DNA of 64,000 nucleotides from NCBI RefSeq assembly GCF_037042905.1, contig NC_087245.1:28956001-29020000 (forward strand). Direction: 5' to 3'. Origin of the DNA: Lytechinus pictus (taxonomy: Eukaryota). The translations under genes were made by a program, and so were the position numbers. The number at the start of each line of letters is the position of its first letter. Position 1 is the first letter of the stretch. Below, in pieces: positions 20,181 through 53,710 of this stretch. The notes below the pieces were generated by a model. The model was not told where the DNA came from. It worked only from the letters and a program-made list of their open reading frames with translations, and made no database searches.

Positions 20181-20332
20181 TCCCATAAGTGAGGGTCAGG
20201 CCTTCTTGTCACTCTTCTCCATGCTTGCTATTAAACCATTCCCAATTCGAAACCCACTCCATTTCCTTGCTACTTGATGCCATCCATTTGTCTTTTCCTT
20301 CTGGTTCCTTTTCCAACTCCCCTGTGTTCTAA

Positions 20333-20737: not shown

Positions 20738-21097
20738 TTCTCAAACCCATTAGATCAAGTCTTCCACTTGACTTCTCTTCATATGCCCATAGATGGATGA
20801 GTCTTCTTTATTTTCTCTCTAATCCCTTTCACACTTTACTTCATTCTGCAATCCTTATCAATTGAAATATAGGTAGCTACAGGTAATCTGGGGTCGGTTT
20901 CATCTTGGACCTTCTGGTTAAAAAAAAACTTGATACAATAACAAATTTGCATAAGTTTAAAGGTACTGAAATCATCAAATTTGATTGGCTTATACTATAG
21001 TAAACTTGTTATAGAACTTAAGCAATTTTTGTCATAACAAGTCATTTTGGTATGGGACCCTGGATTCTTTACAATTTACTGATATAAGCTGGAAATT

Positions 21098-21242
21098 AGG
21101 ACTTAATTCACAAAGGTGGTTTCAATTGTACCCTGCTACAAAACCATGGACTATTCATTTTTTTCTTACTTTTTAACAAATCAGCATAGTCCTTGGCTTT
21201 GCACCATGGTACAATTGAAATCACCTTTGTGAATTTGGGCCT
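21098..21242. mobile_element. Short Harbinger-type MITE
   Basis: About 35-bp imperfect TIR AATTCACAAAGGTG(G/A)TTTCAATTGTACC. Confidence 0.6.
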
Positions 21243-22887: not shown

Positions 22888-23727
22888 AGGCCCGTCTCAT
22901 AAAACATTTGTCACAGTGGCAACTCCCATTTTCAGCGTCAAATCTTTGTTTCTGCGGCAAATATAAAAACAGCTGCATCAAATATTGCCATAGCAAAAAC
23001 ACAGCTGTTTCACTATTAAAGAAAATGGCTGCACTGTTGGCTAGTATTATTGAAGAGGAAGAGCAGCGTCCCCGGGGTCGCCCTAGAGTTTTCAGGGACA
23101 GAGCAAACCTCCTAGACATGTATAACGATGACGAGATGTTTAAAAAACATCGATTCCGGAGAGATGGCATCATTGGCATTTGGCCATTTTCAAAAAAATG
23201 GCTGCACTGTTGGCTAGTATTATCAAAGTCGAAGAGCAGCGTCCCCGGGGTCGCCCTAGAGTTTTCAGGGACAGAGCAAACCTCCTAGACATGTATAACG
23301 ATGACGAGATGTTTAAAAAACATCGATTCCGGAGAGATGGCATCATTGGCATTTGGCCATTTTCAAAAAAATGGCTGCACTGTTGGCTAGTATTATCGAA
23401 GAGGAGGAGCAGCGTCCCCGGGGTCGCCCTAGAGTTTTCAGGGACATAGCAAACCTCCTAGACATGTATAACCATGATGAGATGTTTAAAAAACATCGAG
23501 TCAGGAGAGATGGCATCATTGCAATAATCAGCAAATTAGAAGATATCATTCGGCCAAAATCGAAGAGAAACAGGGCAATTCCACCTGCCCTGCAGGTTTT
23601 CATCGCCCTGCGATTTTTCGCCACAGGGTCTGTTATTGACAGCAGTACCAACAACCATGGAGTAAGCAGGGCAACAACCTGCCGAGTGATACACTGTGTG
23701 GCAGAGGCTTTGTACAGCATTAAGCAT
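22888..23727 (+). mobile_element. PIF/Harbinger left end and HARBI1-like transposase N-terminus; 5' 173 bp triplicated; truncated before the DDE core
   Basis: RPRVFRDRANLLDMYNDDEMFKKHRFRRDGII..RNRAIPPALQVFIALRFFATGS..GVSRATTCRVIHCV; ATGs at 23025, 23198 and 23371; AGGCCCGTCTCATAAAAC terminus. Confidence 0.85.
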
Positions 23728-23905
23728 GAGACAGATGAATGTATCAGCATTCTTGGAAGTGCTAAGAGACAGGCCAGAGCATCATGTTGAAAAGTGCAAG
23801 CAATTTGGGTGCACACACGAGGTCATATTTGAGGTATTCCTGTGCTACAAGCACTTCATGGATGACGACCCATGCTCGCATGCTACGCAGTTGCAGAGGC
23901 CGTAA
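23728..23905 (+). pseudogene. Unrelated coding fragment fused to the Harbinger piece, possibly a CxC/KDZ-associated protein end
   Basis: QMNVSAFLEVLRD..IFEVFLCYKHF; abrupt junction; family assignment is weak. Confidence 0.25.
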
Positions 23906-24689
23906 TAGAGAAGTTTCCTCCCGATCTCAATGTCATTCGGTCAAAAGATAGAGGTTATGAACCTCTCGAGAAAAAAATGCATTTGTTGAAATCAATGGAA
24001 ATTATAGTTTTATAGATGATAATTTTCTTCTGTCAATGTCATTTGAGGGTAGAAAGTTCGACGGTGCCTCCTCTTATGAGTTCAAATGTCTTTGGGAAGG
24101 CTCTGACGGCCTAAGTTGTTTAGAGCAGTAGTTTCCAGTCAGTTCTTTTCTGTGTATTGGGTTTGTTTTTCATTTGAATCAATACTGCTTCCACTCGAAC
24201 TACTGCTACCATCATCATCAACATCACAGTACCTTTTCCAGCTCCAACACTTGATACTGGTATAAATGTTGTGACACAATGCACAATAAAAATGTCTAAA
24301 GTGACCAATGCTTTCAACAGTAACAGGTGTGTACAATTCTTCGTCGGGCTCCTGCGGGGTTCTCACACTTGGTACGGATTATGCTATGGGCAAGGACATA
24401 GGAGGGGCACTTAGAAATCATCTGGTAGTGAGAAAAGATGGTAATATTGGCTCCATTATAGCTGTAATCAACACCAGAAACAATAACACATGAGAGATAC
24501 AGGGAAAAGTCATCTTCCCAAGCTATCCTCTCAGGTATGGATAGTGAGGATAAATGTCTTGTGTTTTCAGCGTTCTAGCAGCAGACATGTCTTCGGCATC
24601 CTTGCAACACTCATTATAAAGAAAACACTGGGAATTGCATTTACATGGGAGATCTTTCCAGCCATTTGAACACTAGAAAGGAAATGAAT

Positions 24690-25140
24690 CAGAACGAGAA
24701 ATAGATAACATGGATGACAATTGGCATGAAAATGACACTGGAGTGGGACACCTTCGAGGTATTCTTACACCCAACCAGCAGGGATGATTATGTAGAGCAA
24801 TCAGCCATTCCTTTTGTTGTAGATGGCCAATGCAAATTTTGGTTACCTTGCGATAAAGAAAGTATGATGACGGTGTCTAAAGATGGGAGACCATGGTGGA
24901 CGTGGGTTACCAGTTCACACAAAGATTTTGAAGGAATTCAGAGAACTGCTGCATGCCAAGGTTCTCCAATGTGCATAAATCCAGACTGTTCTTTGAATGG
25001 CCAGCACAACCGGGACAGTTTGAAAAAAAACAGAATCTAACTCCGGTGTGCAAACAAGAAGTGGTAACCGTAACGTCAATATGTCCAGAAGAATTTGTGG
25101 TCATGCACACATGAAAGCATACAGGAGTTGCAAGGAAGGT
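24690..25140 (+). pseudogene. GCM/WRKY-like zinc-binding domain fragment of transposon type
   Basis: IPFVVDG..KDGRPWWTWVTSSHKDFEGIQRTAACQGSPMCINPDC, then frameshifted PVCKQ..EFVVMHT*KHT. Confidence 0.5.
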
Positions 25141-25289
25141 AAAAAATCTACTAAGGATCCTGTAAAGATTTTGAAGGGATTCGGAGAACTGCTGCATGCC
25201 AAGGTTCTCCAATGTGCATAAATCCAGACTGTTCTTTGAATGGCCAGCACAACTGGGACAGTTTGAAAAAAAAAGGATCATTGAGTGCC

Positions 25290-25880
25290 GGAATTGAAAA
25301 GAAAAATGACAAAAATATCTCAAGGAAAACACGCTCAAACTACAAACTGTTGCACGATGAACTAGAGGACAATACTACCGTTCCTGCAGGCGTGGAGGTC
25401 CCTCCTCAGCCTGCTGGAAATGCAGGCGCACTCCCCTCTTCTGGGAAGGAACTAGCAGGCCTTCTTAAAGAGGCAACCAGTAACTTTGAGAAGATGATGG
25501 AGAAGGCGGTGAAGCGCTTAGTTGGCAGTGTCAAGAGAGTGGAGAGGGCCCTTGAGTTTGAGGGACTTCGCATTAATGACTTAGAAAAGAAAAATGCAGA
25601 ACTAGAGAGTCGCTTGGAGAAGATGGAAAAAACATATGAAACCCAAGTTCAGAAGGATCGATCTAGAGATTAACAAGGCAGAGCATCTTTTACGAAGAAA
25701 TAACTTTCGAGTTGTAGGAGTTGAGGAAGCCAAACGTGAAGAGGATTGTGTGAAAATCGTTGAGGATGTGCTGACAATGAAATTCCATTTGGCAGTCAAG
25801 GTGGAGAAAGCCACCAGGGCAGGAAAAAGGGGAGATAAACCACGCCATATCATTGTGAAATCATATGCCTATGATGATAA
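25290..25880 (+). mobile_element. LINE ORF1p fragment (coiled coil plus L1-type RRM), frameshifted
   Basis: ALEFEGLRINDLEKKNAELESRLEKME..RRNNFRVVGVEEAKREEDCVKIV..VEKATRAG..KPRHIIVK. Confidence 0.8.
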
Positions 25881-27006
25881 GGTAATGCACCTATCAATTG
25901 TATGACGCACCCCTCGACCCCCGGAAATGGTGGGTCACTTGTCAAACGTGATTAAAATTTGATTAAAATGAAGTGTAAATCTCGGTTTAGATCTAATCAT
26001 CTAAGCCCATCTACACACATGATTCTAGAGTCTATAGTACTAAGATCTAAGAGATCTAACGTTACATTAGATCATCTGATGTTAGACTAGATCTAATGTT
26101 ACATTACATGATGATGCTGATGTCGATGACAATGATGACTGCCACCGGTGCCTGGTGGTGATTTATTTAAACCGGACTGCTAAAAAGCATGAAAGAAAGC
26201 AAGCAACCAGGGGACAGACGGCTTAAGGTCCAACTCTCCAAAGGACCTGGTGTAATCAGTGTAACATACATTTGTGACGTACATGTAACATGAATTTCTT
26301 ATTATATTATAAGTCAAATATTCACTGTTTTGCGTCCAATTTAGAGGGGGAAAAATTACACTTTTCCTAATTCTAGAATCTACAAGAAGTGACAGCTACA
26401 TTTACATCGCTTTGAGATTGTTAAGATGGTACATGTATTAATTTTTTGTGGAATAGACTCTAGATCAAATTAGCTCTTTTGCACACTGGTTCTTTAATGT
26501 TATACTTTTCACATTTCAAATGGAAATCCTGCCATAGAAAAAAAACGTTTCTGTCATTTCAACAGGCAAACTCCGTGTGCAGATGACACCCGTTTGCACC
26601 AGGCAGATCCACCATGCCCAGGAGAAATAAATTATTGTGTCGAAAAAGGCTGACTGTATTTTGTTTAAGCTTTTAAAAATGTGTATCTATTCTTCGCTGT
26701 GTCTCTGACTCTCTATTCTACATGTATGTATGTTCAGTAAAAATATACAAAATTACCGCGTAATGAAATTTTCCATTAGAGTATAGAGGTTCGCAGCTGT
26801 ATAGTGGTAAAATTTGATTTAATTTTGCTCCTCGAATTGGCAACAATCCTAATTTTCTAATAACTTTCATACTTTGAAAAAATATGGATGGGTATAAGTT
26901 ATAACTTGAGATGATAAGAAATAATTTATGGCAGAATTACAACGAAAGGTTGCCATGGCCAATTTGCCTTTTTAAACAGTGATTTTTGTTGTTTTCACTG
27001 CGTTGC

Positions 27007-27463
27007 CAATTCTCGCTACCCCAAATAGCGATTTCGCCGAGATCCGGGAAAATCCCTGTAACGCGCATTGCATTATGGGATAGCTTTTCGGTATTACAAC
27101 TTCCTGATCGGAAGTCCGATGCACTGTTTTGCCATTCAGATCATGCACAACAACACAACGTCGCTTTCGCTCGGAAAGTTCGTGATCACAACCCTCTCTT
27201 TCACATTTTCATGTGAAATATATTTTTTATTTCTATTTATAATTCAAATGGAATCATAACTGACCAAATTAGATAAAAAGTATTATAATCTGTACATATT
27301 ACGCTGATTGGCATCGATTTCAGCGTGGTGGAAAACTCAGTATCGCGAACCTCGCGCGAGCATAACTCTGAACCGGAAGTGGTGATGACGACCCGACGAA
27401 GTGAAAATTATCTCGTCTCGCGCATTATGAGATTTTTGTTCCTATTTGGGGTAGCGAGAATTG
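27007..27463. mobile_element. 457-bp element with perfect 22-bp TIRs starting CA
   Basis: CAATTCTCGCTACCCCAAATAG at 27007-27028 and its inverse at 27442-27463; no TSD detected. Confidence 0.7.
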
Positions 27464-27745
27464 AAGTGAGTAATGTTATGCTGCGTAGACAAAAGTAAAA
27501 AGAGCTCTGAACAAGTGCAGCTGAATATATCCATATAAAAGCTGCACTATACAAATTAATGTTTATTATTATTATGGTCAATGGAAATGATCAAATGGCT
27601 GTTATTCAGGGAATAGTACCACCTAAGGCACTGAAAACCGTATCAAATTTGTTGATGCTAATTTTTTTAACCTCTCTTTTTTTTCTTTTCTTTGAATACA
27701 GTTTTCAATATACCATGGACCTACCAAGAGGAGGGATTGCCAACA

Positions 27746-28803
27746 ATGGCGGCACAGCATAAAGAAGGTCTGAAAGCATTCTGTATATTGTGTGGCAAGC
27801 AGAATGCTATGCTTGCAGATAGACTTCCGTATAAGAAGGAGAAATTCAGCAGGTTTATTTCGGCAGCATTGCAGATTGACGTGGAAGCAGATGACTGCAT
27901 GGTCCATCCTCCATTCATATGTAAATCATGTGAGCGGAAACTCGATAGGTTCCGAAAGACAAAGGCACAGAAGAATATTATTGATGTCAATATTCCTGTC
28001 TTTAATTTTGTGCAGAATACAGCATATGTCAACATGTGAACACTGCTAACATCGATGACATCACCTCATCATGTGCGGAGCATCTTTCTTTTGTGGGAAT
28101 GTGTATGAGCAGGCAGGCAGATAGAACATTATTCATTAGTATATCTGTTCAAGACAAAGATGTCACCACCATACCCAAATGTGTAACTATCTACAACGAG
28201 GCAACGTGGCATGTTTCGATAGTTGGCAAAGAATTGAAACAGGATCACCCCATCCTTGGGCACTTACCCGCAATTCTTGACAAAGATTCAGCAAAAGATT
28301 TAGTGATGACTGCTGGAGCCATCAAAATATGTAGTGGTAACCCAGACTTTGTTGAGTTTATGGTAGACAGGAGCAGCATTGGAATACCCTCAACAACATT
28401 TTTCATTTGTTCCTTTTACAAGAAATCTGTTCGGCTCAAACACTGTAAGTTGGTGGAAGAAGGGAAGGACAGATGCTCTGTTTGTTCAGTCGGCAGAGGA
28501 GATCTCATGTCTTGGAGGGACAAAAAGCAGAAGGACGAAGATACAACATCACCGTCTTCTTCAACAAAGCTATCTTACTTGTCTCGTGCGCAACTGAAGA
28601 TTCGTACCCAAAAACTCCATAAAGAGAAGGGGAAAACAGAAAAGAAACTTGTCTCTCTCCACAAGCAAGTTGCTGCACGTTTTGAACGCAGTCATTTTAT
28701 CAAAAGGGATAATAGTCAGAATACTGTCATTGAGGATCTGGTTACAAGGAGCACTGATGAGCTGGAAGTGGTGCTTTCTCCTAACACTGCAGCATGGTAC
28801 TAG
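27746..28803 (+). pseudogene. Transposase N-terminal half: RAG1-N/Chapaev-type zinc finger joined to a P-element/THAP9-like region; one frameshift near 28012; truncated
   Basis: HKEGLKAFCILCG..IDVEADDCMVHPPFICKSC, then WHVSIVG..ICSGNPDF..SVRLKHCKL..RCSVCSVGR..TSPSSSTKLSYLS and a coiled coil. Confidence 0.7.
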
Positions 28804-28809
28804 TAGGTC

Positions 28810-29288
28810 CAGGGACTCAATTTTAAGGCGCGCGAGAGCGATCGCGCGCTACATGCGCGCCTTAATCCATTTTAGGTAGCGCGATTAATAGCGCGCCTCG
28901 CGATCGCTGAGCTGCGCGTGGCTGGCTAGTGAGCGATCCGATCCGAGGCTAGGTGCTAGGCAACCCCGATCTAGTGGAATGGACTTTGAAGATTAGCACA
29001 TTTGATTTGAAAGAAAACGAAAAGAAAAACAAAATGAGTAACAGTAAATCCAAAGTGACAATCTTGACTGTCAAGAGCTGGGGGTTCGGGGTTGGGTTCG
29101 AGACGGAAACAACTGCAGAGGGTATCACATATGCGACTAAAATCTGGTGCGAGACATTCAGAAGACAGGGAGCAAAAATAAAGTGTGATCCTTGAATACG
29201 TGGAGTGGCAGAGAAGGCAGCGAGTACGTACATCCATGGAACGACCTTTATTACGAAACACAATGTGAGCAGGCATTTTGGGGGAAAG
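28810..29288 (+). mobile_element. hAT left end and first coding exon (ZNF862-like hAT transposase N-terminus)
   Basis: CAGGGACTCAATTTTAAG terminus with CpG-rich subterminal repeats; ATG at 29034; KIWCETF..YIHGTTFITKHNVSRH; donor AAG|GTAAG at 29288; internal stop. Confidence 0.65.
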
Positions 29289-30139
29289 GTAAGCTTGTTA
29301 TTCTCTCAATTTTCGTTTAATGGTATTTTCGCACTACTACTAATATTACCATGATTTAAATACGGTTTTGAAGTGGATTCTAGACTTATTTTAATTTTAT
29401 ATCTAGGCTACCGTACCGAAGTCTATCCCGACACATTTGGGTGGTTGTGGCTCGCGCGTACGGGGCGAAGCTCCATAGTTTCGTCCTCCTCCGGCCGGAA
29501 GACAGGAGCTTCGCCGGCCACTTGTCAGGCGCAAGCAGTGATCCTCTACCGCTCTCCTTAAAAGTTCTAGGAGAGCTTTTTATTATCTTAACTCTTGGAC
29601 GGTACTGTATGGTACTTCATATACAGTGTGAGAAAATAATGCGCAATTTAAAAGAGATGAGAATTAAATGAGATCAATGGGACGATAGATATTGGTGTTT
29701 AACTAATGAGGCCCCTTGATATAAAATATTCCCCCTATATGTAAGATATTAAAATCTAACCCGCCAGGGCTTACTTCCGGCCCCAAAATACTGATATCTC
29801 AGAATTTTACTTCTCCCTCTTTTTCTAGGTCAATTGCGATACAAGAGCCATGTTCTTATGAAAACTTGGGTGCTGACAGCTTTAAAGAGCTTCTGAGGGT
29901 GGAGTTTCCTGCTTTGCAGAATCAACCATTTCATTTCTGCAAGGCATGAGTCGAAGGAGCTGGTAAGTCTGCCAGTCAACGTAAACACAGCAGCACTTAT
30001 ATACAAATATCGAAGGAACAAGCATTTCAAACTCTACATTCCACCTGGACAGGTGAAAGGACACAGTTTCGGGAGAGTGCGAAACTTGATCATTGGTGGA
30101 ACACCATTTGAAAGAATTGTCCTGCCTTGAAAAAAGACT

Positions 30140-30610
30140 ATTCGTCTACTTTACGATTGGCTGCTTGTCACCGACTCCGAGGCAAAACTCCTCTCTCACA
30201 TCTCCCTACTCCTCCGGGTAACCCAGGAGTTAGGGTTTGTTGTAAACTGGGAGAAGTCAGATCTTACTCCGACCTGCATTCCCACTTATTTGGGCTCAGA
30301 ATTGGACATCCCCAACCAGATTGCCCAGCCCAGTGCCGACAGGGTTCAGTCAATCACTTCTCTCACTCGCTACGTGAAGGCCCATACCTGGTTGCGACTG
30401 CTGGGCTTCATGGCCAGCCTAATTGACATCCTTTTGGGTTGCCGACTTCACATGAGGCCATTCCAGAGACAGCTTCTGCGCCACTACAAACCTGGCGCAG
30501 ACTCACTGTAGTTATGGATCCCCCTCCTGGGGGACATCCGATGCAGTTAAGCTCCCTGGACCCGCACGTTGTTTGTGGCTTGGGGCAAGCCCTTTCGCAC
30601 CCTTTTTCCG
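30140..30610 (+). mobile_element. DIRS1-type retrotransposon RT fragment
   Basis: Broken YLDDWLLV followed by LGFVVNWEKSDLTPT..YLG..WLRLLGFMASL..RLHMRPFQ. Confidence 0.85.
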
Positions 30611-31019
30611 TCCGGAGAGTTCAAGATGGTTATGATGGAATGACAAACATTATGGAAAGAATGATTGGTAATCTTCCGTCACAGTCTAATAATATGCAGG
30701 CAGAGGACCTCGGGTGGAACAGAGTTTCAGCATAAGGAACAATGTAATAAATCCTAAGACAAACTGACTTGACACAACAGACATTCAAGACAATCCAAAA
30801 AGGAAAATATGAATTACAGGCAAACGGTTACGATAATAAATTCTTAAGGCATCTGTAAATGTACTTTCTATTCTGGCTGCTACCTCTGAAGTTAGGTTAA
30901 CTTTGTATCATATCTTGCATTTTGTATGTAGTGGATTTTCTATTAGTTGTATTGTCATCAATTTTATGCTTGGGAAAATAGATTTGAGTTAATAATTTTC
31001 TCACAAGTTTAATCAAAGC

Positions 31020-31299
31020 ATCATGCTGCCTTAGAAACATCATATAAAGAAATATGAAGAAAGATATTCAAGCGCTGGAGGAAAAGCAGAGGAAAGCAGA
31101 TGAGGCGCTCATGGAGAAAGACTGGCAAAGAAGGATGACTGTCGAAGACAAGAGGAGAGAGGCTGGAGAGTTCAAGATGGTTATGATGGCTATGATGGAA
31201 AGACAAACGAACATTATGGAAAGAATGATTGGTAATCTTCCATCACAGTCTAATAATATGCAGGCAGAGGACTTCGGGTGGAACAGAGTTTCAGCATAA
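31020..31299 (+). pseudogene. Coiled-coil C-terminal fragment resembling a Harbinger Myb/SANT partner protein; 3' part duplicated at 30614-30898
   Basis: EEKQRKADEALMEKDWQRRMTVEDKRRE..MMAMMERQTNIMERM; the assignment rests on composition only. Confidence 0.35.
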
Positions 31300-31498
31300 G
31301 GAACAATGTAATAAATTCCCAAGACAAACTGACTTGACACAAAAAACATTTAAGACAATCCAAAAATGAAAATATGAATTACAGGCATACGGTTACGATG
31401 ATAAATTCTTAAGGCATCTGTAAATGTACTTTCTATTCTGGCTGCTACTTCTGAAGTTGGGTTTTTGTATTGTTTGTAGTACATTTTTTTTTCTACAG

Positions 31499-32055
31499 AG
31501 TCCCGGAGAGAGCAAATGTCCCCACCCTACTCTTTTGGTTCTGAGAGAGGTCCTCAAAGATTTTGTTGGTTTCCCTGCTAATGATCTGTGCATTGAGAGA
31601 TGTCAACAACAACAGCAAGTCCCAAAGATTTGAAGGCCAGTCCAAGAATGGTTCATATAGTACTAGCTTCTTTCATGACAAAGGAAAAGGTGCTACAGGG
31701 CTGTATTGGGAAGATCAAGGCATCAAAATATGAGGAGAGGAATTTGTCTGTGTCTGATGATTTTTCAAAGAAAGTCCTAGAAAGTTTAAGGGCAAGATGG
31801 ATGCCCAAGAACTTGTGGAAGTCTCAGTGGGAAGATTTAAGTTATTTTACAAGGTACTCCTCTAATAGGAGTCGCTATTCCTGTTAAGAACTCTTTTAGT
31901 TAAAATTAATGCTTTGTCACAAGACAAAAGTGGTAGATTTTTCATACTGAATGGTATCTTTAATGAGCTTCCATTTTCAATTGTAAATATCTACACCCCA
32001 AATAATGATGATCCTGATTTTCTTTTAAAAGTATTGGCAGAGGTTGACGAATTTT
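31499..32055 (+). mobile_element. L1/Tx1 fragment: ORF1 end fused to part of the ORF2 AP-endonuclease
   Basis: CIERC..PRMVHIVLASFMTKEKVL..LSVSDDFSKKV; LWKSQW; DKSGRFFILNG..IVNIYTPNNDDPDF. Confidence 0.8.
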
Positions 32056-32057
32056 GA

Positions 32058-32760
32058 GATGGCATTCCTCTGCAAGAAGTGTGGCAAGAGATACCAGACA
32101 AGGAAAGGCCTTCTCAACCATGAGAAGAAAATGCATCAAGGAGTGCCTGATGACAGAGTACTACCGCTTCAAGCATGCACGATGGGGTCGTCAATTATTC
32201 CAAGTGTGCACTAGGATGGAAATTAGCCCTCGACGTCACTGACGCCAAACAGATGGCTGATGGAGAGCGCATCATTCAACCCTAAAAGCAGCTTTTGCTG
32301 CATAAGACAGGCAACAAGCTCAAATATGCACATCAGATCTTGCAACTTCTGCCAAAGGTGAAGTGCTTTCTGACCCCTAGATTATGTTATGAGCTAATCT
32401 GGAACTGCTCCATAAATACCAAAGGCCTACAAAACACTAATGTAGAACTTGACTGGACGATGAAGCATCACAATAGGGTGTTTAAGGAGCATCATAGAGG
32501 ACTCCATAGCAAGGTGTCTCAGAAAAGCATGGACAGAATCAGCCACATTGCACAGGCAGTGCATGAAGTTCTCGCTAATGTAGACATAACAACTAGAATT
32601 TAGGAAACCTTCCAAGCGCCAACACATCGGCAAGGAAGATGTATCTTCTCTTGCACAGGAACTTCACCAAGAGAGGATCTTTGAATTGCGTCCAGGGAGG
32701 AATCACTCAAAGTTTCCAGAATTCCCTGGAAGCTTTTTACATGTGCACATCAGCCCCAGC
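32058..32760 (+). mobile_element. DUF6589/Academ-type transposase C-terminal fragment with a C2H2 finger
   Basis: FLCKKCGKRYQTRKGLLNHEKKMH; DGVVNYS..DAKQMADGERII..KYAHQILQLL..LIWNCSINTKG..NVELDWTMKHHNRVFK. Confidence 0.7.
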
Positions 32761-32938
32761 TCTCCATTGATGGATCGGTATGAGCATGGGGTCACTCTCA
32801 TGACAACATCAATTCCAACTGCAATGAGTGCTGAAGTTTAGAATGTAAATTACAAAGATTTTATTTTTGTTACTGATATACATGTATATCAGAGTAGAAA
32901 CTGACATCAAAATTTTGTACAATAAAAACATCTGTTAA

Positions 32939-33107
32939 AGCGACCAGAAACTGGTAAACACTGGTTGACGCCATCTACAGCTTTTGCCAAAAGGATGCCA
33001 CAGAGTGCGTCGGACTAGCACATGGCGTGTGTCGAAAAATGTTATGTATGAGTGAATGGAGGAAGACGTAGATGGCGTCAACCAGTGTTCGCCAGTTTCT
33101 GGTCGCT
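32939..33107. mobile_element. Kolobok-type MITE, TTAA TSD
   Basis: TTAA|AGCGACCAGAAACTGG..ACACTGGTTGACGCCATCTAC with inverse copy ending at 33107|TTAA. Confidence 0.85.
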
Positions 33108-33232
33108 TTAATTATAGGCCCAGATTTTCTTCTTTTTTTTGGGGGGGGGGGCTTTATTATGATGTGAATTACACACATCATGATCAAGCTACCCCCCCAA
33201 AAAAAGCCTTCTTTCTTCTTTCTTTCTTTCAG

Positions 33233-33632
33233 GTACTTGCTGGAAAAAAATGCCGCGACCAGCTAAGAAACATAAACGGGCAATGCCCGAGAAAATGGGC
33301 AAGATTCATCAATACCTGACTGACAATTTTGAAGTCTTCCCTGAACAATTGACAGATCTGAAGAATGGACACTTGCTACTTCTTTACACCAATAATGACA
33401 ATTCAGTTGGAAAAACAATCAAGCTTGTTGGAGAAAAGCTATCATGTAGATTCACTCATGCCCAGCTGCGGTCTCTACTTAACCAAGCTAAGAAATTTAA
33501 ACATGTAGATACTGATGCCCTCATGAAAAAATACAAGAGCCTGTGCTGTGATCCATTTCCTTCATTTGATCATAATGTCACCCAACTACAGGTGCCAGAG
33601 TCTTCAGAGCCTCAACTTTACATCTTCACATG
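33233..33632 (+). other. Orphan open exon, about 128 codons from ATG 33250; product unknown, probably transposon-derived
   Basis: Polypyrimidine acceptor tttcAG at 33232; donor ATG|GTAAGT at 33632; no internal stop. Confidence 0.45.
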
Positions 33633-34795
33633 GTAAGTACAAATGGATCTTCGTACAGTCATAAATTTGAAGATCAGAAAGATATACTTTCAAATAATTG
33701 AATCAAAATTTTAACTAATGTAAGCTTTTACATGTACATGTATATCACAGACTCTGATCTAAATTAATGACATGAAATGATGTATGTTTTAATATGTCAC
33801 GTTACAATGTACCCAACAAAATAATTATGGCCTTCAAGAAATAAATAATGAAATTAAAGGCAAACAGACTCATACAATTATTCTTTTTCTTAAAATAGAT
33901 TTTGTGCAGATCTGTGCCATATAACATTATGAATTTTGATAAATGTGCTAATCGATAATAGCCAATCAGGATCTTTGTTGCATAATGCACTTGTCAATGT
34001 AAAGACCCACCCTGCTACCCCCGACTTGGGTGCGTCTTTTCAACAATCTGCTACTTCATTTTCGCGAAGCCCTTGGGAATTTACATAAATAGAATGATAG
34101 GATATGATCCTTTTTAAGCCACTCAATGCAACAGTTTCCTACCTCCCCCCTTAATTTATTTGTTGTCCCATACTAGGTGATCGTATATTGTAATGTTGAT
34201 TATTGTCAGGAAACTGTATTACTGATTCTGTCAATCATGTATTTGTACTTATTATATCATATCATGTTACATTGTACGTGTATGAGTAAGTATACTGGGT
34301 ATAAAGTTGTGGCGAGGGACTCGATACCTTCCTGTCTTGCTCAACAAAGTAGGAGTCATGCAGTCATGGTAAACATTGAAAAAGAGAAAATGAAAAAAGA
34401 AGAAGATTGGAACCACCACATTTTAGACAAAAATTGAGTATATCAAAAAGTAAAGGTGAGGCACACTGAGATGGGCATCTTCTTTGACGGAATTGTTTTA
34501 CAAGGGGTGTTTTATAAGCTTAAGTAATTAACTCTATATTGGGTTCGAGGTGAAGGCGCCCATTCGCCTCTTAGGACTGCCACGTCCATTGTTCTGACCT
34601 GCACCCTGGATGGATGGTTGATATTCATGTTCCCGCATGTGCAGATGAATTGGTTCAAGGCAGTTGAGAAGTCGTGGCTGTGGAATACATGCTAGCGCAG
34701 ACAAAATAATGTTTTAGCCCGGGTTCCTCAAACTCAGGAAGTAGGTCAATGCATTCAGTATTGTAGAGTGCTATACAAATAATGAATGTTTATGA

Positions 34796-34915
34796 GTGCG
34801 ATGGACAGAAGACTTCATGAGGTGAAAGATGAAATGATCCATTTAACGAGGCGTAGCCGAGTTGAATGGATCATTATTTCATCTTTCACCGAATGAAGTA
34901 TTCTGTCCATTGCAC
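34796..34915. repeat. About 120-bp palindrome with a GAGGCGTAGCCGA loop, Crypton-like terminal structure
   Basis: Arms GTGCGATGGACAGAA..GGTGAAAGATGAAATGATCCATTTAAC and the inverse. Confidence 0.6.
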
Positions 34916-42662: not shown

Positions 42663-45600
42663 TGGGGTGTTGCAAGAAAGTTACGTTGCAATTGATTGCA
42701 AATCGACTGCAACTTTGCAGCCGATTCCGATCGACTGCAACTACAGTAGCAATCAATCGCCAATTTGCGTTGCAAGAAAAAGGCTTGCGATTGAACGCAA
42801 GTTGCAGCTGATTTGCATACGATCTGCAGCTGTAAACAGGGTCTGCAGCACAAGACTAGCTGATGAAGCAAAATAATCCTTGCAATAATCGTGATTGTGG
42901 AAGAGAGTAAGTAGAAAATATTCATTTTTCACAGCTTTCCTTCTCCAGTATGTATGTTTTCAGAGAATTTATATATTTTAGACCTATGCCAGTGAAAAAA
43001 TTATTTTGTAAAATGTGAAAATGTATCTTTATCGCCAGTCGAAATTTCACCTTCAAATTTTTTTTTACCACACAGTTTAAACCCAGTCCCACACTTGACT
43101 TTTTGTGTCGCTAATGCACTGTTGTACCAACAACACGGCAGGACATTCCCGGTGCAGTGCTGTTAAAAATCACCCTGAAGCAAGTAAATTTGTAGGCTCT
43201 AATTATGTATGAAACATCGAAAATGACCTTAAAAGATTATTATTGTTCATATTTGAAATGATTTTTAAGTTATATCAGTTTCAACGGCGAATAACCATCC
43301 AGTAAATGGATTCAATGCAGTCAACTTTTGAGAAACACTCGACAGAAAGCAATTTTTTGTTTTTAACTAGCCTAGGCCTAAAGGCTAAAGGATTTTTAAT
43401 CTAACGTTAGGCTTTAAATCAAAGACTTCCATTATTAGATCCTCTCCATTAGTCTCTCTTTTTTAAGAGTCTGTCTAACCTCCCTTTTTATGACTTTCCT
43501 TTGCCTGGCCTGGGATAGAATGAAAATTTTGCTCTTGACTTTGGAGGAATTTTTAAGATTTATTTAATATTATTATTTTATTTATTTATTCATTTATTTT
43601 TTATTTTTTGGAGGGGGGGGGGTTCTCCACATTTTTCGCCAGGCCAAAAAAAACAACAACAAAGGTAAAGGGGGTCTACATGTATTTTATTAATTATTTT
43701 TAAAGATGTTATTGGGCTATTATTTATTAAACCTATTGGCCACATCTGCCACATTCTTGGGGAAGTTTTAACATTGAACAGGGAGTTGCCCGCCCGGGGC
43801 TCTTTTTAAAATTTCTTACGGGCAGATTGCACAAGAGGTTCTTTGCAAGGACAGTCTATTTGTGTCGTTGATTTGTAATGATGTGCCGTATGAGTCACAT
43901 TTTTAATATCCATCACATATAAATATAAAAAGATATACATGTAAGCCTAAATAAATCTTTTTTTTAGATTCAATATGTAGGTCTACTATGCCGGGGGGAA
44001 GGTACTTAGATTTGGTTTGGACAAAGGTGTGTGGCTGAAAGTTTGAAACCCGTACCCATATTTACAGGTCATTTTGGCTAAAAAGGTACCCATTATTAGG
44101 GATTCATTACAGGGGCAGATCCAGGATTTCCAAAAGGGGGGGGGGCACATTTTCGCCTGGAAAAACTTGACAAGCAAAAAAAAAAGAAAAAAAAGGTTAT
44201 CACCCAAAATGTAAGGTCATTTTGTATTTGCACCTAAGACATTGGAGTAGAATATGGACCCATGTTTAAGGACATTATCTAAAAATTGGGCAATGCTTAG
44301 GGATTTTCCAGCATAAAACCATACGCCATGTTTAGGGATTTCTTCAAAAAAGGCGACCCATTCCTGCGGCATATCCCCATATGCCTTATCTCGTGAGTAC
44401 CCCCCCCCCCCCCCGGGCTACTATGTAGCTGACTCTTGATTTTTATGCAAGCACATGAGGTGCTAAATAGATGACAGACTTTTTTTTCACTTTAAATTGT
44501 TTAATGGATGATTACAATGCTTTTCCAGGTGCTTTCAGTTAAAGGGTGTCTCATATGGTGCATCAGTATTAATATTGAATGCATAATCATGATTTTTTTT
44601 AACATCCTTTTACATCAAGCACAATACTCGGGGGGGGGGGCATATGGTCCCCCTTGACATTTTTCAGAATAAATCTGCCACTCAAAATTTTATTACCGCA
44701 CCGCTGACTGACGTTTTACTTTCAAGTCTCACACAACTTTTGGTACTAAATTTGCCATTCCCAGGTACAGGGTCAGGAAATTTTGCAACATTATGTTTGT
44801 TTAAGTACATGTCAGACAAAAACATGATCACATGTAAAAAGTCAATATTCATAACTGGGTAATTTGTTTTTTATTGACAATAGTAATTTAATGTCACTGA
44901 TGAACTTTGTCTTGAAAATAACAACAACAAAAAAAATTAAGAAGTTAAGAAAAAATATTTTAAAAAAAACATGAATTGAAAGGAATTTATTTTGATACCA
45001 GATTTGTTAAAGTAAAGTTGTTAGGATTGCTCTAGAAAGGAATATGTACACCAAAGTTTGGCATTCTATTAGGAGCTTTTTTTAGTAAATTAAAGCAAAA
45101 GGTATGATTTCATAATTTTTTTAATTGCGCCGCCCATGGCTGAGGAACCATAGTGCTCCCCAGGCCAGAAGTGACTTTAATCAAAACACCCTTGGACTAC
45201 TATAATGATTAACACACTGGCAACTGAGCTTAACTTGTATATTAATTTCATGAATATGTTTTATCTCTTTGCTTTTTGCTTTTAATTGCTTACTACAGTT
45301 ATGACAAAGAAGTCTGGAACCTCAGAACCACCATAACTGTGTCTGCTACAATGTGTGTTCTTGCAACCAGCTGATTGATTCATTTTATCAACTCTTGAAT
45401 GGTAGGTTACATGTAAACTGTATTATTATTAATAATTCACCATGATGCGGGTGAAATCTGTACACATTGACCCAAGGATGATGCAAAATGAAAAAGGCTA
45501 ACACAAATCTCTATCTTGACTGGACTTCTCAGCAATGAAGACATCCCATTGATGGGGAGGAGGGGGAGGGGAGGGGGTGGTTGTGCTCATCCAAGGTGTA

Positions 45601-47387
45601 CTGTATGAAAGTGTGTATTTTGCTTTCATTGATTTAATTTATTGCATATTTTAATTTCCATGATTCATTTATTTGGGGAAAAACAATCAGTTTTCACACT
45701 TTTTTAGATTACATCATGGCAAATTGCCAATTATTATGGTCTCAGGAGTAAGCCACTATCCCTCTATCATATCATCTTGTCGGTGCAAACAACGCCCTTA
45801 CCAGCAGGCATAGGGGCATTTCTGCACTGATGGGGTGCACAAAAATGTTTTGCTAAGGGCGTTCTTGCACTGAAAGGACAAAATTTGAACTAACCCAAGC
45901 TATGTATGGTTATGGGCTTGCATTATTTCCTATATTATTATTTTTTTACGAACAGGTTGATTATCAGAACTGAATTCAGAGCTGCTCCTGTCTGTAGTAA
46001 CATCTTATTAGAGTGGACTTCAGAATGAGGGTGTTGCTGGTTTAAAAACTTCACTCCATGGAGCTCTCCAATTTCATCTCAAATTAGACTGCTTCTGGAA
46101 ACCAGATTTGTTCCTTCAAGCAGAGACGTTTGTGGCTTTCCTGACTGGACTTCTATGGATTCTTCTTGCCAACATTAAGGACTGTGGGCTGACATTCAGT
46201 GGTAAAACACTTGATGAAGATGATATGATATCAATTTTTATTTGATATAAATGAATCTCAGAAGTAATTCCTCAGGAGTAAGAAACAATTAAAATTAAAA
46301 ATAAAAGGTCCATCAATAATGAATGTCTTGAGCAGTGTTCTTTTTGTGCACAGATCAATGGATCTTTTCATTTCCAAGCAGGGATGTAGTCAATGCTGAC
46401 CTTGAGACAACATTTTGCTGGCCTTGGTCCGAGTCACTGTACAGAATCTATGGGAAGTTCTCTCAAGCTGCCTCATGACTCGGAAGAATCAGCCTCGACC
46501 TCATCCCTGTATGCAAGTGTGATATATATCTACCATGCAATCTCATGATTAAAGAGAGAGAAACAAGAGAGCTTCAGATTTTGAAGTGTAGCAATCTCCT
46601 GAAATGTATGTTTTATTTGAAAATCAAACTAAAATAACTTAATTGGGCATGTTATTCATTATGATATTTATGAATGAAAGCATTGAAGCAATTTGGTGCT
46701 ATTGCAAAACAAATTCTGAGTTGTATTTACTGCAAACACTCAGAAATATTGATAAGCATTTGCCAGTGCATGAAGTGTTTTAATGAAGAGTGGCTTTTTT
46801 GTGCCTATGTAGAGTTATTATTTCTTCAATATTTTTTCATACAAATTATTTCAGAAGTCACAATTTGAATATTCCATGACCTCTGATAACAAGAGCAGAA
46901 TATTTTTGGTGATTGACACACTTTAAAATGATATTAGGAGAGAATGTAGTGAAATTGTGTGAAAATAATGGCATAATTGCTGAAGAGGCCTATAAAGATT
47001 GAAAATAACATTATTTCAAGTTTTTCTTGAAAAAACCCATGGAAAATTGAAAATGGCATAATTTACACAAGTTTTCAAAACAAAATACAAAAAAAATTTT
47101 TTTTGCAGAATTTTTAGTACACAAGCCTATGGACAATCAATTGAACGTAAATCGAACGCAAATTTTGCGCATCCTCCAAAATCTCACATAAGTTACGTTC
47201 GATTTGCAATCAATTGCAAAGCTTGCGCTTGATCTACGTTCAATTGATCAAACGCAACTTGTTCTTGCAACAGGATTGAACGTAACTTGCGTTCAATTGC
47301 AGATTTGCGTTTAATCGGAGGACTTACGCTCAATTTTGGGTGTTGCGTTCGATTTGCGTTCAATCGCAAGTTTCTTGCAACACCCCA
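42663..47387. mobile_element. 4.7-kb non-autonomous PIF/Harbinger element inserted in array unit 3
   Basis: TIR TGGGGTGTTGCAAGAAA; TSD TTA at 42660-42662 and 47388-47390; empty site CATCTTAGACATGG present in units 2 and 4. Confidence 0.9.
43991..44417. mobile_element. CCGGG-polyG MITE nested in the Harbinger element, 8-bp TSD
   Basis: CCGGGGGGAAGGTACT...GAGTAC(C)nGGG; CTACTATG on both sides. Confidence 0.7.
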
Positions 47388-50300
47388 TTAGACATGGAGA
47401 AGACAATGCCATGGATCCTACAGAGATCCATGGCATCACTCCATGTCATGGGAGACCTCTAAACGAGGCATTCATCTCTCCATCTCTTGAAAAATGCCTT
47501 GTTTACTCCAAATCAAGGTTTATAACCAAAGGAGGAGGAAGCAGAAATTACCAATTTCGGTTGAAGCTTTCATAAAATTTGAGAAAGGAAGGGGAAAGGA
47601 AAAAAACAGAGAAAGGAGGAGCGTGATCAAAAGAGGATGGAAAAGGAAAAACAGAAGGAAATGCAAAAGGAACAGAGACAAAGACGGCAACAAGAGCTCC
47701 AAAAGAAAAATATAGATCACGAGATGAGAGTGAAAGAGAAGCTGAACGAATGAATGAAGTGAGAATGAAGAAAGCTACACAGGAAAAAACAAAAAGAAGC
47801 AGAGAAAACAAAGACCATGACTCCCTTTTTAGATTCCAGCAAAAGTGCACTGCATGTATAATGGAACAGAGGCCATGAAGTGCAATTAAGGCTTAAAACA
47901 CAATGTAAAAAAGAAATTGTAAAAAGAATTCATAAGCATGCACTTAGATTTTGTGGTTCAGGGGGGTGTGGGCAAAATGACTGAATCCATCGTGCCAAGG
48001 ATGTCATAGGATGACAATGATCTCCAAGGGGCCACACACATTTTCAAACAATTTCAAAACATATTGTCACAATAAAATATGTTACTCCCCCATTAATTCA
48101 CAGATGGTTTGAAGACCTCAAGGAATTCCTCAATGAAAACAATGCCCAGAGCATTCTACAAGAACCTGGAAGGATTTTCAATGCAGACAAGTAAGGGTTT
48201 ACACTATGAGGGCATTTGGACGATCATGTGCTGGCACTAAAGCGGGAAAAGGTAGTTCAACAATTCAAGAATTAGACAAAAGGACAGTTTTGGTAAATGC
48301 ATGCGCGGAGGGCAGCTTCTTACCGCCAATGATAGAGTTGTTAATGACAGGGAAGCATGACGGAGCAGCTTACCAAGGTGCGCCAAGGGGCTCTTATTTG
48401 CTCAAACCAAAAATAGCTGGATGGACAGCAAGGCCTTTTATGGCTATATTGCTAACTTATTCCAGCCAACTTTGGCTCAAAAGAAAGTGCCCCTCCCTGT
48501 ACTCTTGCTTGTGGATGGTCTCAACGCACATCAGACGTTGGAGGTAGCGATGTGAAGGGAATGGTATTCTCCTATATTGATTCCCTCCCAATGCAACGCA
48601 TATACTCTAACCATGTGATGTGTCGGTCTTAAGACCCCTGAAGTCATCCTGGAACAAGGCCGAGCAGCTGTTCCGTTTTTGCAACCCTAGCGCTTACGTC
48701 ACGAAAACAACATTTTCGAGAGTTTTCGCTGACACTTGGCTAGAAATTCTCCGAAAGCCAAGCATTGGTGCGTCGGGATTTAGAGCAGCAGGGATTTTCC
48801 TGTTCACAAAGTGGTATAATTCTGCCTTACTTACAACAGCAGAATTATACCACTTCGTCGATACGAATAGTACCCCTGAAGAAGGGATTACTCCACCCTC
48901 GAATGACGCGTTCATTCCGGAGAGTGATGTCGTGAGGCATGTACCTCAACCAGATGAGCCAGAAGATGACATTCCATCATCACCTTCTGCTCATCTTAGA
49001 CATGGAGAAGACAATGCCATGGATCCTACAGAGATCCATGGCATCACTCCATGTCATAAGAGACCTCTAAACGAGGCATTCATCTCTCCATCTCTTGAAA
49101 AATGCCTTGTTTACTCCGAAATCAAGGTTTATAACCAAAGGAGGAGAAAGCAGAAATTACCAATTTCGGTTGAAGCCTTCATGATATATCAGGAAGAGAA
49201 GAAAGAGGAAAGGAAAAAAAAACAGAGGAAGGAGGAGCGTGATCAAAAGAGGTTGGAAAAGGAAATACAGCAGAAAATGCAAACTGCACAGAGACAAAGA
49301 CGGCAACAAGAAAAAATAGATCGCGAGATGAGAGTGAAAGAGAAGCTGGAACGAATGAATGGAGAATGAAAAAAGTCACACGAGAAAAAGAAGAAAGATG
49401 CAGAGAAAACGAAGACCATGACTTCCTTTCTAGATTCCAGCAAAAGTGCACTGCATGTATAATGGAACAGAAGCCATGAAGTGCAATTAAGGTTTATAAT
49501 GCAATGTACAAAGGTCTGTGAAAATAAATTATAAGCATGCACATCAATTTTGTAGTCATAAGAAAGAAATAGCTGGAGTATATTTCTTTGGTAATCTCTA
49601 AGGAAAGTGCAGACTTTTGCAATCCAAAGACCATTACTTCCTCTTGAGATTCCATCAAGTACGCACTGCAAATAAGAAACGGAACAGAAGCCATGAAGTG
49701 CAATAAAGGCTTAAACCATGATGTAATTTTTTTTTGTAGAAGCCATGAAGTGCAATAAAGGCTTAAACCATGATGTAAATTTTTTTGTGAAAAAGAATTC
49801 ATAAACATGCACATAAATTTTGTGGTTGGGATGGGGGCGGGGGCAAAATGACTGAATCCATCATGCCAAGGATGTCATGGGACAACGATGATCTCAGAGG
49901 GGCCATACAGATTTTCAAACAATTTCAAAACATATTGTCACAATAAAATATGTTATTCCCCCCCATTAATTCACAGATGGTTTGAAGACCTCAAGGAATT
50001 CCTCAATGAAAACAATGCCCAGATCATTCTACAAGTAACTGGAAGGATTTTCAATGCAGACAAGTAAGGGTTTCCACTATGAGGGCATTTGGACAATCAT
50101 GTGCTGGCACTAAAGAGGGAAAAGGTAGTTCAACAATTCAAGAATTAGACAAAAGGACAGTTTTGGTAAATGCATGCGCGGAGGACTGCTTCTAACCGCC
50201 AATGATAGCGTTGTTAATGCAAGGGAGGCATGACGGAGCAGCTTACCAAGGTGCGCCAAGGGGCTCTTATTTGCTCGAACCAAAAATAGCTGGATGGACA

Positions 50301-53169
50301 GCAAGGCCTTTTATGGCTATATTGCTATCTTATTCCAGCCAACTTTGGCTCAAAAGAAAGTGCCCCTCCCTGCACTCTTGCTTGTGGATGGTCTCAACGC
50401 TTATCAGACGTTGGAGGTGGCGATGTGAAGGGAATGGTATTCTCCTATATAGATTCCCTCCCAATGCAACGCATATACTCTAACCATGTGATGTTTTGGT
50501 CTTAAGACCCCTGAAGTCATCCTGGAACAGGGCCGAGCAGCTGTTCCGTTTTTGCAACCCTAGCGATTACGTCACGAAAACAACATTTTCGAGAGTTTTC
50601 GCTGACACTTGGCTAGAAATTCTCCGAAAGCCAAGCATTGCTGCGTCGGGATTTAGAGCAGCAGGGATTTTCCTGTTCACGAAGTGGTATAATTCTGCCT
50701 TACTTACAACAGCAGAATTATACCACTGCGTCGATACTAATAGTACACCTCAAGAAGGGATTACTCCACCCACGAATGACGCGTTCATTCCGGAGAGTGA
50801 TGTCGTGAGGTCACCTCAACCAGATGAACCAGATGATGACATTCCATCATCACCTTCTGCTCATCTTGGACATGGAGAAGACAATGCCATGGATCCTACA
50901 GATATCCATGGCATCACTCCATGTCATGGGAGACCTCTAAACGAGGCATTCATCTCTCCATCTTTGAAGAATGCCTCGTTTACCCCGAAATCAAGGTTTA
51001 TAACCAAAGGAGGAGGAAGCAGAAATTACCAAAGGGGAAAGGAAAAAAAAACAGAGAAAGGAGGAGCGTGATCAAAAGAGGATGGAAAAGGAAAAACAGA
51101 AGGAAATGCAAAAGGAACAGAGACAAAGACGGCAACAAGAGCTCCAAAAGAAAAAAAAATAGATCACGAGATGAGAGTGAAAGAGAAGCTGAACGAATGA
51201 ATGAAGTGAGAATGAAGAAAGCTACACAGGAAAAAACAAAAAGAAGCAGAGAAAACAAAGACCATGACTCCCTTTCTAGATTCCAGCGAGTGTGCACTGC
51301 ATGTATAATGGAACAGAAGCCATGAAGTGCAATTAAGGCTTAAAACACAATGTTAAAAAGAAATTGTAAAAAGAATTCATAAGCATGCACTTAGATTTTG
51401 TGGTTCAGGGGGGTGTGGGCAAAATGACTGAATCCATCGTGCCAAGGATGTCATAGGATGACAATGATCTCCCAGGGGCCATACAGATTTTTAAAACAAT
51501 TTCAAAACATATTGTCACAATGAAATATGTTACTCCCCCCATTAATTCACAGATGGTTTGAAGACCTCAAGGAATTCCTCAATGAAAACAATGCCCAGAG
51601 CATTCTACAAGAACCTGGAAGGATTTTCAATGCAGACAAGTAAGGGTTTCCACTATGAGGGCATTTGGACGATCATGTGCTGGCACTAAAGAGGGAAAAG
51701 GTAGTTCAACAATTCAAGAATTAGACAAAAGGACAGTTTTGGTAAATGCATGCACGGAGGGCAGCTTCTTACCGCCAATGATAGTGTTGTTAATGCAAGG
51801 GAGGCATGACGGAGCAGCTTACCAAGGTGCGCCAAGGGGCTCTTATTTGCTCAAACCAAAAATAGCTGGATGGACAGCAAGGCCTTTTATGGCTATATTG
51901 CTAACTTATTTCAGCCAACTTTGGCTCAAAAGAAAGTGCCCCTCCTGCACTCTTGCTTGTATTCTCCTATATAGATTCCCTCCAAATGCAATGCATATAC
52001 TCTAACCATGTGATGTGTCGATCTTAAGACCCCTGAAGTCATCCTGGAACAGGGCCGAGCAGCTGTTCCGTTTTTGCAACCCTAGCGATTACGTCACGAA
52101 AACAACATTTTTGGAGAGTTTTCGCTGACATTTAGCTAGAAATTCTCCGAAAGCCAAGCATTGCTGCGCCGGGATTTAGAGCAGCAGGGATTTTCCTGTT
52201 CACAAAGTGGTATAATTCTGCCTTACTTACAACAGCAGAATTATACCACTTCATCGATACTAATAGTACCCCTCAAGAAGGGATTACTCCACCCACGAAT
52301 GACGCGTTCATTCCGGAGAGTGATGTCGTGAGGTCACCTCAACCAGATGAACCAGAAGATGACATTCCATCATCACCTTCTGCTCATCTTGGACATGGAG
52401 AAGACAATGCCATGGATCCTACAAAGATCCATGGCATAAGAGACCTCTAAACGAGGCATTCATCTCTCCATCTCTTGAAGAATGCCTCGTTTGCCCCCAA
52501 ATCAAGGTTTATAACAAAATTAGGAGGAAGTAGAAATTACCAATTTCGGTTGAAGCTTTCATAAAATTTGAGAAGGAAGGGGACAGGAAAAAAAACAGAG
52601 AAAGGAGGAGCTTGATCAAAAGAGGATGGAAAAGGAAAAACAGAAGGAAATGCAAAAGGAACAGAGACAAAGACGGCAACAAGAGCTCCAAAAGAAAAAA
52701 ATAGATCACGAGATGAGAGTGAGAGAAGCTAGAACGAATGAATGAAGTGAGAATGAAGAAAGCCACACAAAAAAAAGATGCTGAGAAAACGAAGACCATG
52801 ACTTCCTGTCTAGATTCAAGCAAGTGTGCACTGCATATAATGGAACAGAGGCCATTAAGTGCAATTAAGGCTTATATATCACAATGTAAAAAGGTTCTGT
52901 GAAAATAAATTATAAGCATGCACATCAATTTTAAGGTCGGAAAAAAGAAATAGCTGGATTATATTTCTTTGGTAATCTCTAAAGAAAGTGCAGACCTTTG
53001 CAATCCAAAGATCATGACTTCCTCTTGAGATTCCACCAAGTACACACTGCAAGTAATAGGGAACGGTAGCCATGAAGTGCAATAAAGGCTTAAAACACAA
53101 CGTAATAAATTTTTGTGAAAAAGAATTCATAAACATGCACATAAATTTTGTGGGTGGGAGGGGGGCGGG

Positions 53170-53710
53170 GGCAAATTGACTAAATCCATTGTGTCAAGAA
53201 TGTCATGGGATGACGATGATCTCCAAGGGGCCATACAGATTTTCAAACAACAATGTGAGCTATACTTTCCCGTTGAGAATGTTTGAGAGGAGAAGATGGT
53301 TGACCATATCCTTCTCTTCATGGGAACACAAGGTCTTCGGATGTACAACTCTTGGGGGCTGTTGCCTGCAGAAAAGAAAAGCGCAGCTGTTTGGGACAAA
53401 TTTGAGAGCTTATTCAAACCAAATTCAAATTTTGGGGTTGCCAGACTATACCTCAACAAATATCACCAGGAGACAGGAACGGCTGATGGTTTTAAGTCAC
53501 AGCTCAAGGTGCACGCACAGACATGTCAGTTTCGAGACGATAGGGAATTCTCAGACAGAGTTATAGAACAATTTATCGCTAACACGCACCAGCTGACAAT
53601 GCAACAGTGCCTGAACTATGCACGTACGCATGAAGCTTCAATCTCTCCCGTGCAGCAACTTGCTGGTGCATGTACACCATCCACAGCAGTAGACGCCATC
53701 CAGCAGAGGT
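53170..53710 (+). mobile_element. Ty3/Gypsy gag fragment
   Basis: RMSWDDDDLQGAIQIFKQQCELYF..KMVDHILLFMGTQGLRMYNSW..VWDKFESLFKPNSNFGVARL..AQTCQF..DRVIEQ..CLNYARTHEAS. Confidence 0.8.

Follow-up and report, generated by a model that had tools for sequence, protein, structure and literature searches.

A single-orientation mosaic of transposon coding fragments 3' of a tubulin gene in Lytechinus pictus, a candidate uni-strand piRNA precursor locus

The read-through core clusters of PIWI-interacting RNAs (piRNAs) in mosquitoes are uni-strand, lie directly 3' of an ordinary expressed gene, carry foreign pieces in antisense, and show RNA-seq coverage that is highest at the far (3') end, which was read as polyadenylation (10.1101/2022.08.22.504762). 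Mammalian piC-DoG transcripts are 3'-extended over tens of kb, with dense antisense transposon fragments beyond the poly(A) site of a gene (PMC11615739). Drosophila flamenco and flam-like clusters are unistrand, with transposon remnants oriented opposite to the cluster RNA, and selection for antisense insertions has been proposed (PMC10643416). Here we describe a 31-kb block (22,880-53,790) in a 64,000-nucleotide stretch of Lytechinus pictus DNA (GCF_037042905.1, contig NC_087245.1, positions 28,956,001 to 29,020,000 of the forward strand; hereafter the window) from a genome of 812 Mb. The block is crowded with short dead coding fragments from unrelated elements, it lies 3' of a minus-strand tubulin gene, and we consider it fairly probable that it is a uni-strand piRNA precursor locus. 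Searches of the open-access literature gave no account of read-through clusters of the uni-strand kind from echinoderms; were this reading true, such clusters would span insects, mammals and echinoderms, and their defence would extend to DNA transposons in addition to retroelements.

The block resembles the mosquito clusters in lying 3' of a gene with its pieces antisense and, should run X1 (below) be RNA, in coverage that is highest at the far end; it resembles piC-DoGs in its dense antisense fragments beyond a poly(A) site, and differs from both in cargo. Mosquito clusters are described as enriched in non-retroviral viral sequence and piC-DoGs as holding LINE-1 and endogenous retroviruses (ERVs), whereas the block contains DNA transposons, 5' halves of long interspersed elements (LINEs), DIRS and Gypsy: 13 families of both classes, in pieces of 0.3-2.9 kb, mostly low-copy or near-extinct. 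In mosquitoes, experiments established the piRNAs, the chromatin state and the read-through (10.1101/2022.08.22.504762); for the block, piRNAs and a link to the gene are predictions. Because the piC-DoG study did not generally link downstream transposon content to read-through (PMC11615739), layout alone is no proof of read-through. An initial annotation, made from the letters of the window, had compared the block to flamenco, a likeness that extends to the single strand and antisense orientation and stops at content: the strand bias of flam-like clusters is exclusively Gypsy-driven and flamenco spans 180-650 kb and is active in follicle cells (PMC10643416), whereas the Gypsy enrichment of flamenco is missing from our 31 kb, where Gypsy supplies one of the 13 pieces and most are DNA transposons and LINEs. 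By analogy, the layout appears closer to the downstream-of-gene clusters of mosquitoes and mammals than to Gypsy-specific flamenco. Antisense tirant insertions in host 3' untranslated regions (UTRs) offer a plausible birth route, as host transcription across the piece is reported to start piRNA production (10.1101/2025.07.28.667215); the tirant case concerns single insertions of one retrovirus, whereas the block is a multi-family archive.

Orientation was assigned by searching the genome with pieces of the block and letting the long open reading frame (ORF) or Pfam domain of each parent locus set the strand. Thirteen distinct transposon or transposon-like coding fragments were identified, all on the plus strand and thus antisense to the tubulin gene, which ends at 57,845. 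Beginning from the left, these are the 5' part of what we take, from a motif, to be a Harbinger-type transposase, with its 5' terminus and a 173-bp sequence in three tandem copies (22,880-23,730; parents 70-79% identical, no Pfam match); a GCM-like piece of a multi-copy, kinase-bearing 1393-aa ORF (24,790-25,260; 3 other loci at 45-47%, with no further DNA-level copy in the own-genome search); a LINE ORF1 fragment (25,260-25,883; 85% identical to a parent in which ORF1 is followed by an Exo_endo_phos ORF); a piece of a zf-AD or 'RAG1-N-like' element containing a nested miniature inverted-repeat transposable element (MITE) (25,949-28,808); the 5' end and N-terminal exon of a hAT element (28,810-29,584; 79-93% to parents, one of which, L031, has a hAT dimerisation match 4 kb downstream on the same strand); a reverse transcriptase fragment (30,135-30,620; parent with RVT_1 and RT_RNaseH) presumed to be of DIRS type from its overlapping-ORF layout; a duplicated C-terminal piece of a Harbinger partner gene, presumably Myb-like (30,614-31,470; parent 5 kb from a convergent DDE_Tnp_4 match); L1/Tx1-type ORF1 and endonuclease pieces (31,491-32,054); a C2H2 finger with a DUF6589 C-terminal piece (32,060-32,835; E 6.5e-9; 26 matches, many in ORFs of 1,000-1,850 aa); the N-terminal part of a long ORF that is multi-copy and has no family name (33,220-33,620; 10 other loci at 29-36%, no Pfam match); a Kolobok 5' end at TTAA with an intron-containing gene that we take to be KolX (35,837-38,235; P2RX7_C; 94% identical to a spliced, expressed copy on contig C2); a pogo DDE fragment joined to the start of a Gypsy piece (38,248-53,254; DDE_1; 3 other loci at 66-68%); and an N-terminal fragment of a Gypsy-type gag (53,176-53,790; parents in 1366-aa ORFs, parent RVT_1).

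For ten of these 13 the anchor is a Pfam domain, whether in the piece itself, in the parent or in a neighbour of the parent, or, for the Harbinger transposase, its terminus and a motif. The remaining three (GCM-like, zf-AD/RAG1-N-like and 33.2 kb), for which searches gave no named relative, are transposon-like solely through multi-copy parents or a parent in another mosaic. With this qualification, the 11 or more fragments first counted become 13. For the zf-AD piece the only other copy found lies in a mosaic on contig C10 (88% identical), and searches for long relatives of its parent and of the 33.2-kb parent gave none, which is weak evidence. The 1393-aa ORF family, with a protein-kinase domain and GCM-like region in one multi-copy frame (L186 and L187, at C14:19.49 Mb and C15:17.98 Mb, and L188), looks mobile. 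Pfam was insensitive on stop-free ORFs, giving a transposon-type match for 4 of the 13 fragments, and a scan of 12 targeted pieces gave one weak match; coiled-coil and tandem-repeat matches (ANG-1, FliD_C, SafA, Effector_1 and similar) were discarded as noise, and two duplicate Harbinger ORFs were omitted from the scan of block ORFs.

The right half of the block (38,248-53,254) resolves into six head-to-tail copies of one pogo plus gag-start unit (1.5-1.85 kb each, 91-95% identical over aligned columns), which we counted once. Unit 3 is interrupted by a high-copy 4.7-kb non-coding terminal inverted repeat (TIR) element with a TTA target duplication (42,660-47,388; no assigned strand), of which 89-95% identical copies occur across many contigs, with no long ORF. 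This insertion is later and ordinary, and neither it nor the high-copy non-coding MITEs, also later insertions, has an orientation. The initial annotation had also warned that minus-strand pieces might have been overlooked, and there is one: a fragment at 24,102-24,683, the only one facing minus, of a host intronless 7tm_2 (secretin/adhesion-type) G protein-coupled receptor (GPCR) family (83-85% to L013-L015; parent ORFs longer than 700 aa; 7tm_2 E 7e-12, weak somatomedin B E 0.005). The proposed dense, one-orientation mosaic thus stands for the transposon-like pieces, with this host-derived piece as the exception.

For 13 of 13 pieces to face one way by chance has a probability of 2x0.5^13 = 2.4e-4, or 1.8e-3 for 13 of 14 with the GPCR piece included; both values are post hoc, the window having been picked from a genome scan. 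A tblastn comparison of strand bias with background, as the initial annotation had suggested, used 78 long ORFs from fetched loci. After merging, 22.8-54 kb contained 16 regions, 15 plus and 1 minus, 7 of the plus regions being pieces of the single tandem pogo unit; four plus fragments identified by other searches (Harbinger, hAT, Myb-like, KolX) bring the distinct total to 13. Controls gave no region in 17.9 kb left of the block, in 54-64 kb of the window or in 80 kb of flanks, and one region among 53 loci around short repeats (171.5 kb), a contrast that is overstated because the library is biased to the block's parents and missed a Tc1 element at 63 kb. Purine skew, which needs no library, is positive in 26 of 31 kb of the block, compared with 6 of 15 kb to its left and 43 of 80 kb of flanks. 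Left of the block, 0 of 93 ORFs match Pfam; the sequence there includes short repeats and, at 15.4-20.2 kb, an (ATC)n array. These data bear on another view, in which the block is a graveyard of transposons that owes its one-strand appearance to chance, duplication and post-hoc selection, and in which its RNA signal is DNA or noise. That view gains from half of the block being a single tandem unit, with three more pieces locally duplicated, from runs X6-X8 (below) being nearly silent and X1 being RNA by guess, and from one related locus (C6:8.77 Mb) being mixed. We nevertheless regard it as improbable, given that 13 independent families are left after collapsing duplicates, that two further mosaics (C13 and C6 at 19.8 Mb) are also all one strand, and that X1, unlike DNA, changes ten-fold in depth, contains spliced joints and stops next to a poly(A) signal.

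The archive appears to be unique as an assemblage. Own-genome DNA searches over the block, scoring the best 40 candidates for each, returned no match besides the window that crossed from one family's fragment into the next, and 296 ORFs contained no Helitron or Polinton domain. Capture of the block as cargo of one large element (Helitron, Polinton or Pack-type), among the findings that the initial annotation had named as overturning its proposal, or its origin as a segmental duplicate, might account for pieces that abut with hardly any spacer, in some cases at a microhomology of 2-3 nt; with no match spanning a family junction and none of the expected domains, we hold it to be very improbable. 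Pieces were said to mostly lack their termini, and three of them (Harbinger, hAT, Kolobok) do keep the 5' terminus and have lost the other end. Eight of the 13 are 5' or N-terminal parts, and both LINE pieces are 5' halves; ordinary LINE insertions retain the 3' end. The block's KolX retains both introns that its C2 paralog splices out, hence capture occurred at the DNA level. Most parents are few, and are 66-94% identical or detectable at the protein level only, so part of the archive remembers families nearly gone. Such a structure could have arisen if elements or pieces landed, partly inside earlier elements, deletions then removed right-hand parts, and local tandem duplication amplified some. 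The block is polymorphic: run X1 carries an allele that lacks the nested MITE through a 781-bp deletion (26,912-27,692) with a microhomology of 3 nt; the joint 26,911-27,693 was also considered as a minus-strand intron and rejected on its TG..TT ends and microhomology.

Read mapping covered 20,210-39,950 with four (X1, X6-X8) of eight listed public runs; runs X2-X5, which contain 0.28-0.69 of the stretch's words, were left uncounted. X1 consists of contigs and is taken as RNA by guess, argued from two spliced GT..AG joints and from its size (94 million contig letters, far below the 812-Mb genome). All 30 bins have X1 coverage (21.3-40 kb spanned). Its depth is 21-35 at 21.5-26 kb and declines rightwards by about ten-fold, reaching 3-6 at 38-40 kb (Spearman rho -0.90, e-fold ~8.6 kb, on 18 of the 30 bins, high-copy repeat and close-paralog bins omitted). 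A contig end at ~21,313 lies 12 nt beyond a minus-strand AATAAA (21,330-21,325), a signal found 10-30 nt upstream of 1.9% of random positions, and the bin mean then drops to 7. This end marks a putative 3' end of a long minus-strand RNA (21,313-21,330), and gradient and end together have the pattern expected of oligo-dT capture of one long polyadenylated RNA, which they support indirectly. Just left of this putative end, the window carries a degenerate (ATC)n array of ~4.8 kb that includes higher-order repeats (15,390-20,182).

Runs X6-X8 are stranded total RNA, of which ~6% of each run was read, and ~80% of their mapped reads continue unlike the stretch, as repeats from elsewhere. Their library sense is fixed by spliced plus-strand KolX reads, whose first mate is minus. 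Over 17 unique bins they contain ~16 mates from minus-strand RNA against ~1 from plus, pointing at most to trace transcription in these samples, on the predicted strand. The minus-strand transcript first proposed thus gains the X1 gradient, an AATAAA end and a ~16:1 mate ratio, tempered by X6-X8 being traces only and X1 being RNA by guess; the RNA would be restricted to some samples. Spliced sense KolX target RNA is present in X1, X6 and X8. Those reads carry the alleles of the C2 copy (L050/L173, C2:43.31 Mb; 94% identical to the window), which rules them out as plus-strand transcription at the block.

All of the RNA evidence would also be accounted for by a long minus-strand 3' extension or long non-coding RNA (lncRNA) with no piRNA role, from which sense insertions were purged because their splice or poly(A) signals disturb the transcript, leaving antisense bias as a by-product. 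Orientation bias of insertions is known from transcribed regions, and tubulin introns contain two further pieces antisense to the gene, the Tc1 element at 63 kb and, at 61.6-62.5 kb, a piece of LINE ORF1. We rate this explanation as rather unlikely: it would leave unexplained why coding pieces of many low-copy families are so dense here when the controls (with the biased library) are near zero, and purging of poly(A) signals predicts a depletion of minus-strand AATAAA that is not seen.

Twelve parent loci were examined at 10 kb each, four of them extended by 10 kb, and five looked like mosaics; the remaining seven contained single elements or, by eye, nothing remarkable. Four of the five are largely one-strand. 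C13:17.47-17.49 Mb holds, all on plus, two integrases, PHD, a TatD-like piece, a zinc knuckle, an endonuclease, two reverse transcriptases and Harbinger (8 Pfam-match ORFs plus Harbinger), and C6:19.81-19.83 Mb holds, also all on plus, a CACTA-like piece, a 147-bp Harbinger tandem and zf-BED. The plus-strand pieces at C17:15.21 Mb (Harbinger, THAP, a weak zinc finger) lie 3' of a BTB-BACK-Kelch gene on minus and antisense to it, stopping ~1 kb short of its last exon, and at C10:12.79 Mb piggyBac and the zf-AD piece, both on minus, lie 3' of a plus-strand MBOAT gene. The best matches of one Harbinger family fall in four mosaics. This family and the zf-AD sequence shared between the block and C10 may indicate that archives exchange content, or that they are the last refuge of silenced families. 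We make no claim that pieces of host genes are kept sense to avoid self-targeting, there being one case only, and the TatD-like piece on C13 lies on the transposon strand.

In the uni-strand piRNA precursor reading that we favour, polymerase II would read the minus strand, most likely past the tubulin poly(A) site (AATAAA at 57,259), and the transcript would span ~36 kb to a putative poly(A) site near 21.3 kb. About two thirds of our confidence in this reading falls on tubulin read-through and about one third on a separate promoter between 40 and 57.8 kb. Since all oriented transposon pieces would be antisense in this RNA, small RNAs cut out of it could base-pair with mRNAs of transposons from either class, and selection would retain antisense coding pieces; piRNA production, promoter and selection are what we infer. 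The locus offers testable points in its 3' end near 21.3 kb, the tubulin poly(A) junction and the expressed, 94%-identical KolX target on C2. More broadly, and tentatively, the genome may keep dispersed gene-tail antisense archives, in which read-through RNAs of ordinary genes bear snippets of almost every transposon class, near-extinct families included; this would amount to a distributed piRNA memory in a deuterostome invertebrate, findable from sequence alone.

Several observations weigh against the precursor reading. Contigs such as those of X1 cannot show strand or RNA ends, and X6-X8 are nearly silent: no read falls in 21.5-24.8 kb, 6 of the 17 unique bins have none, and the 16 mates amount to ~8 fragments. 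AATAAA occurs 12 times on minus and 11 times on plus in 22.9-38.2 kb, so minus is not depleted. Many pieces are at least 30% diverged from any relative found and would be poor at silencing the families now present. The other loci were chosen by hand among search matches, not by a genome scan; the C10 mosaic has two families only, including a 135-bp inverted piggyBac piece, and the fifth mosaic (L180, C6:8.765-8.775 Mb) is mixed, with three BEN matches and other pieces judged by eye on minus and one Harbinger on plus. Both host-gene-linked mosaics (2/2) match the layout of the window, 3' of the gene and antisense, which is suggestive only because the chance of this is 0.25.

The last exons of the neighbouring gene (57,845-61,091, minus) end in a TGA at 57,847-57,845, in agreement with the stop first placed at 57,845. 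Sequence comparison supports a divergent tubulin; 'epsilon', or TUBE1, is the label of the initial annotation, and comparison with PDB and NCBIfam did not decide the class. A candidate polyadenylation signal of this gene (AATAAA, 57,259-57,264, minus), predicted from sequence, would need to be passed by any read-through. Within tubulin introns and antisense to the gene are a Tc1-type transposase ORF (282 aa; 63,089-63,937, plus) and a LINE ORF1-like relic (61,625-62,524, plus). Between gene and block, a possible transposase helix-turn-helix piece (55,166-55,543, plus; feature score 0.91, HTH_28/32 clusters) is a lead that we did not count, and the own-genome search gave no second copy of it. 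Also left out of the fragment count were 23,730-24,100, for which the own-genome search gave no other copy; 29,830-30,052, which resembles a plus-strand exon; 33,620-34,590; 54,030-54,290, which is reverse transcriptase-like on plus at E 0.04 only; and 56,960-57,840. The 4.7-kb TIR element has apparent short plus-strand exons near 45.3-46.0 kb. The intronless GPCR family, with a cysteine-rich N-terminus and 7tm_2, is represented by L013-L015, L017 and L020 (C1:43.9 Mb, C6:24.5-25.1 Mb) and is clustered on C6. Another tandem of transposon fragments lies at C1:40.540-40.545 Mb (G000), where five hAT dimerisation matches occur within 5 kb, all on minus.

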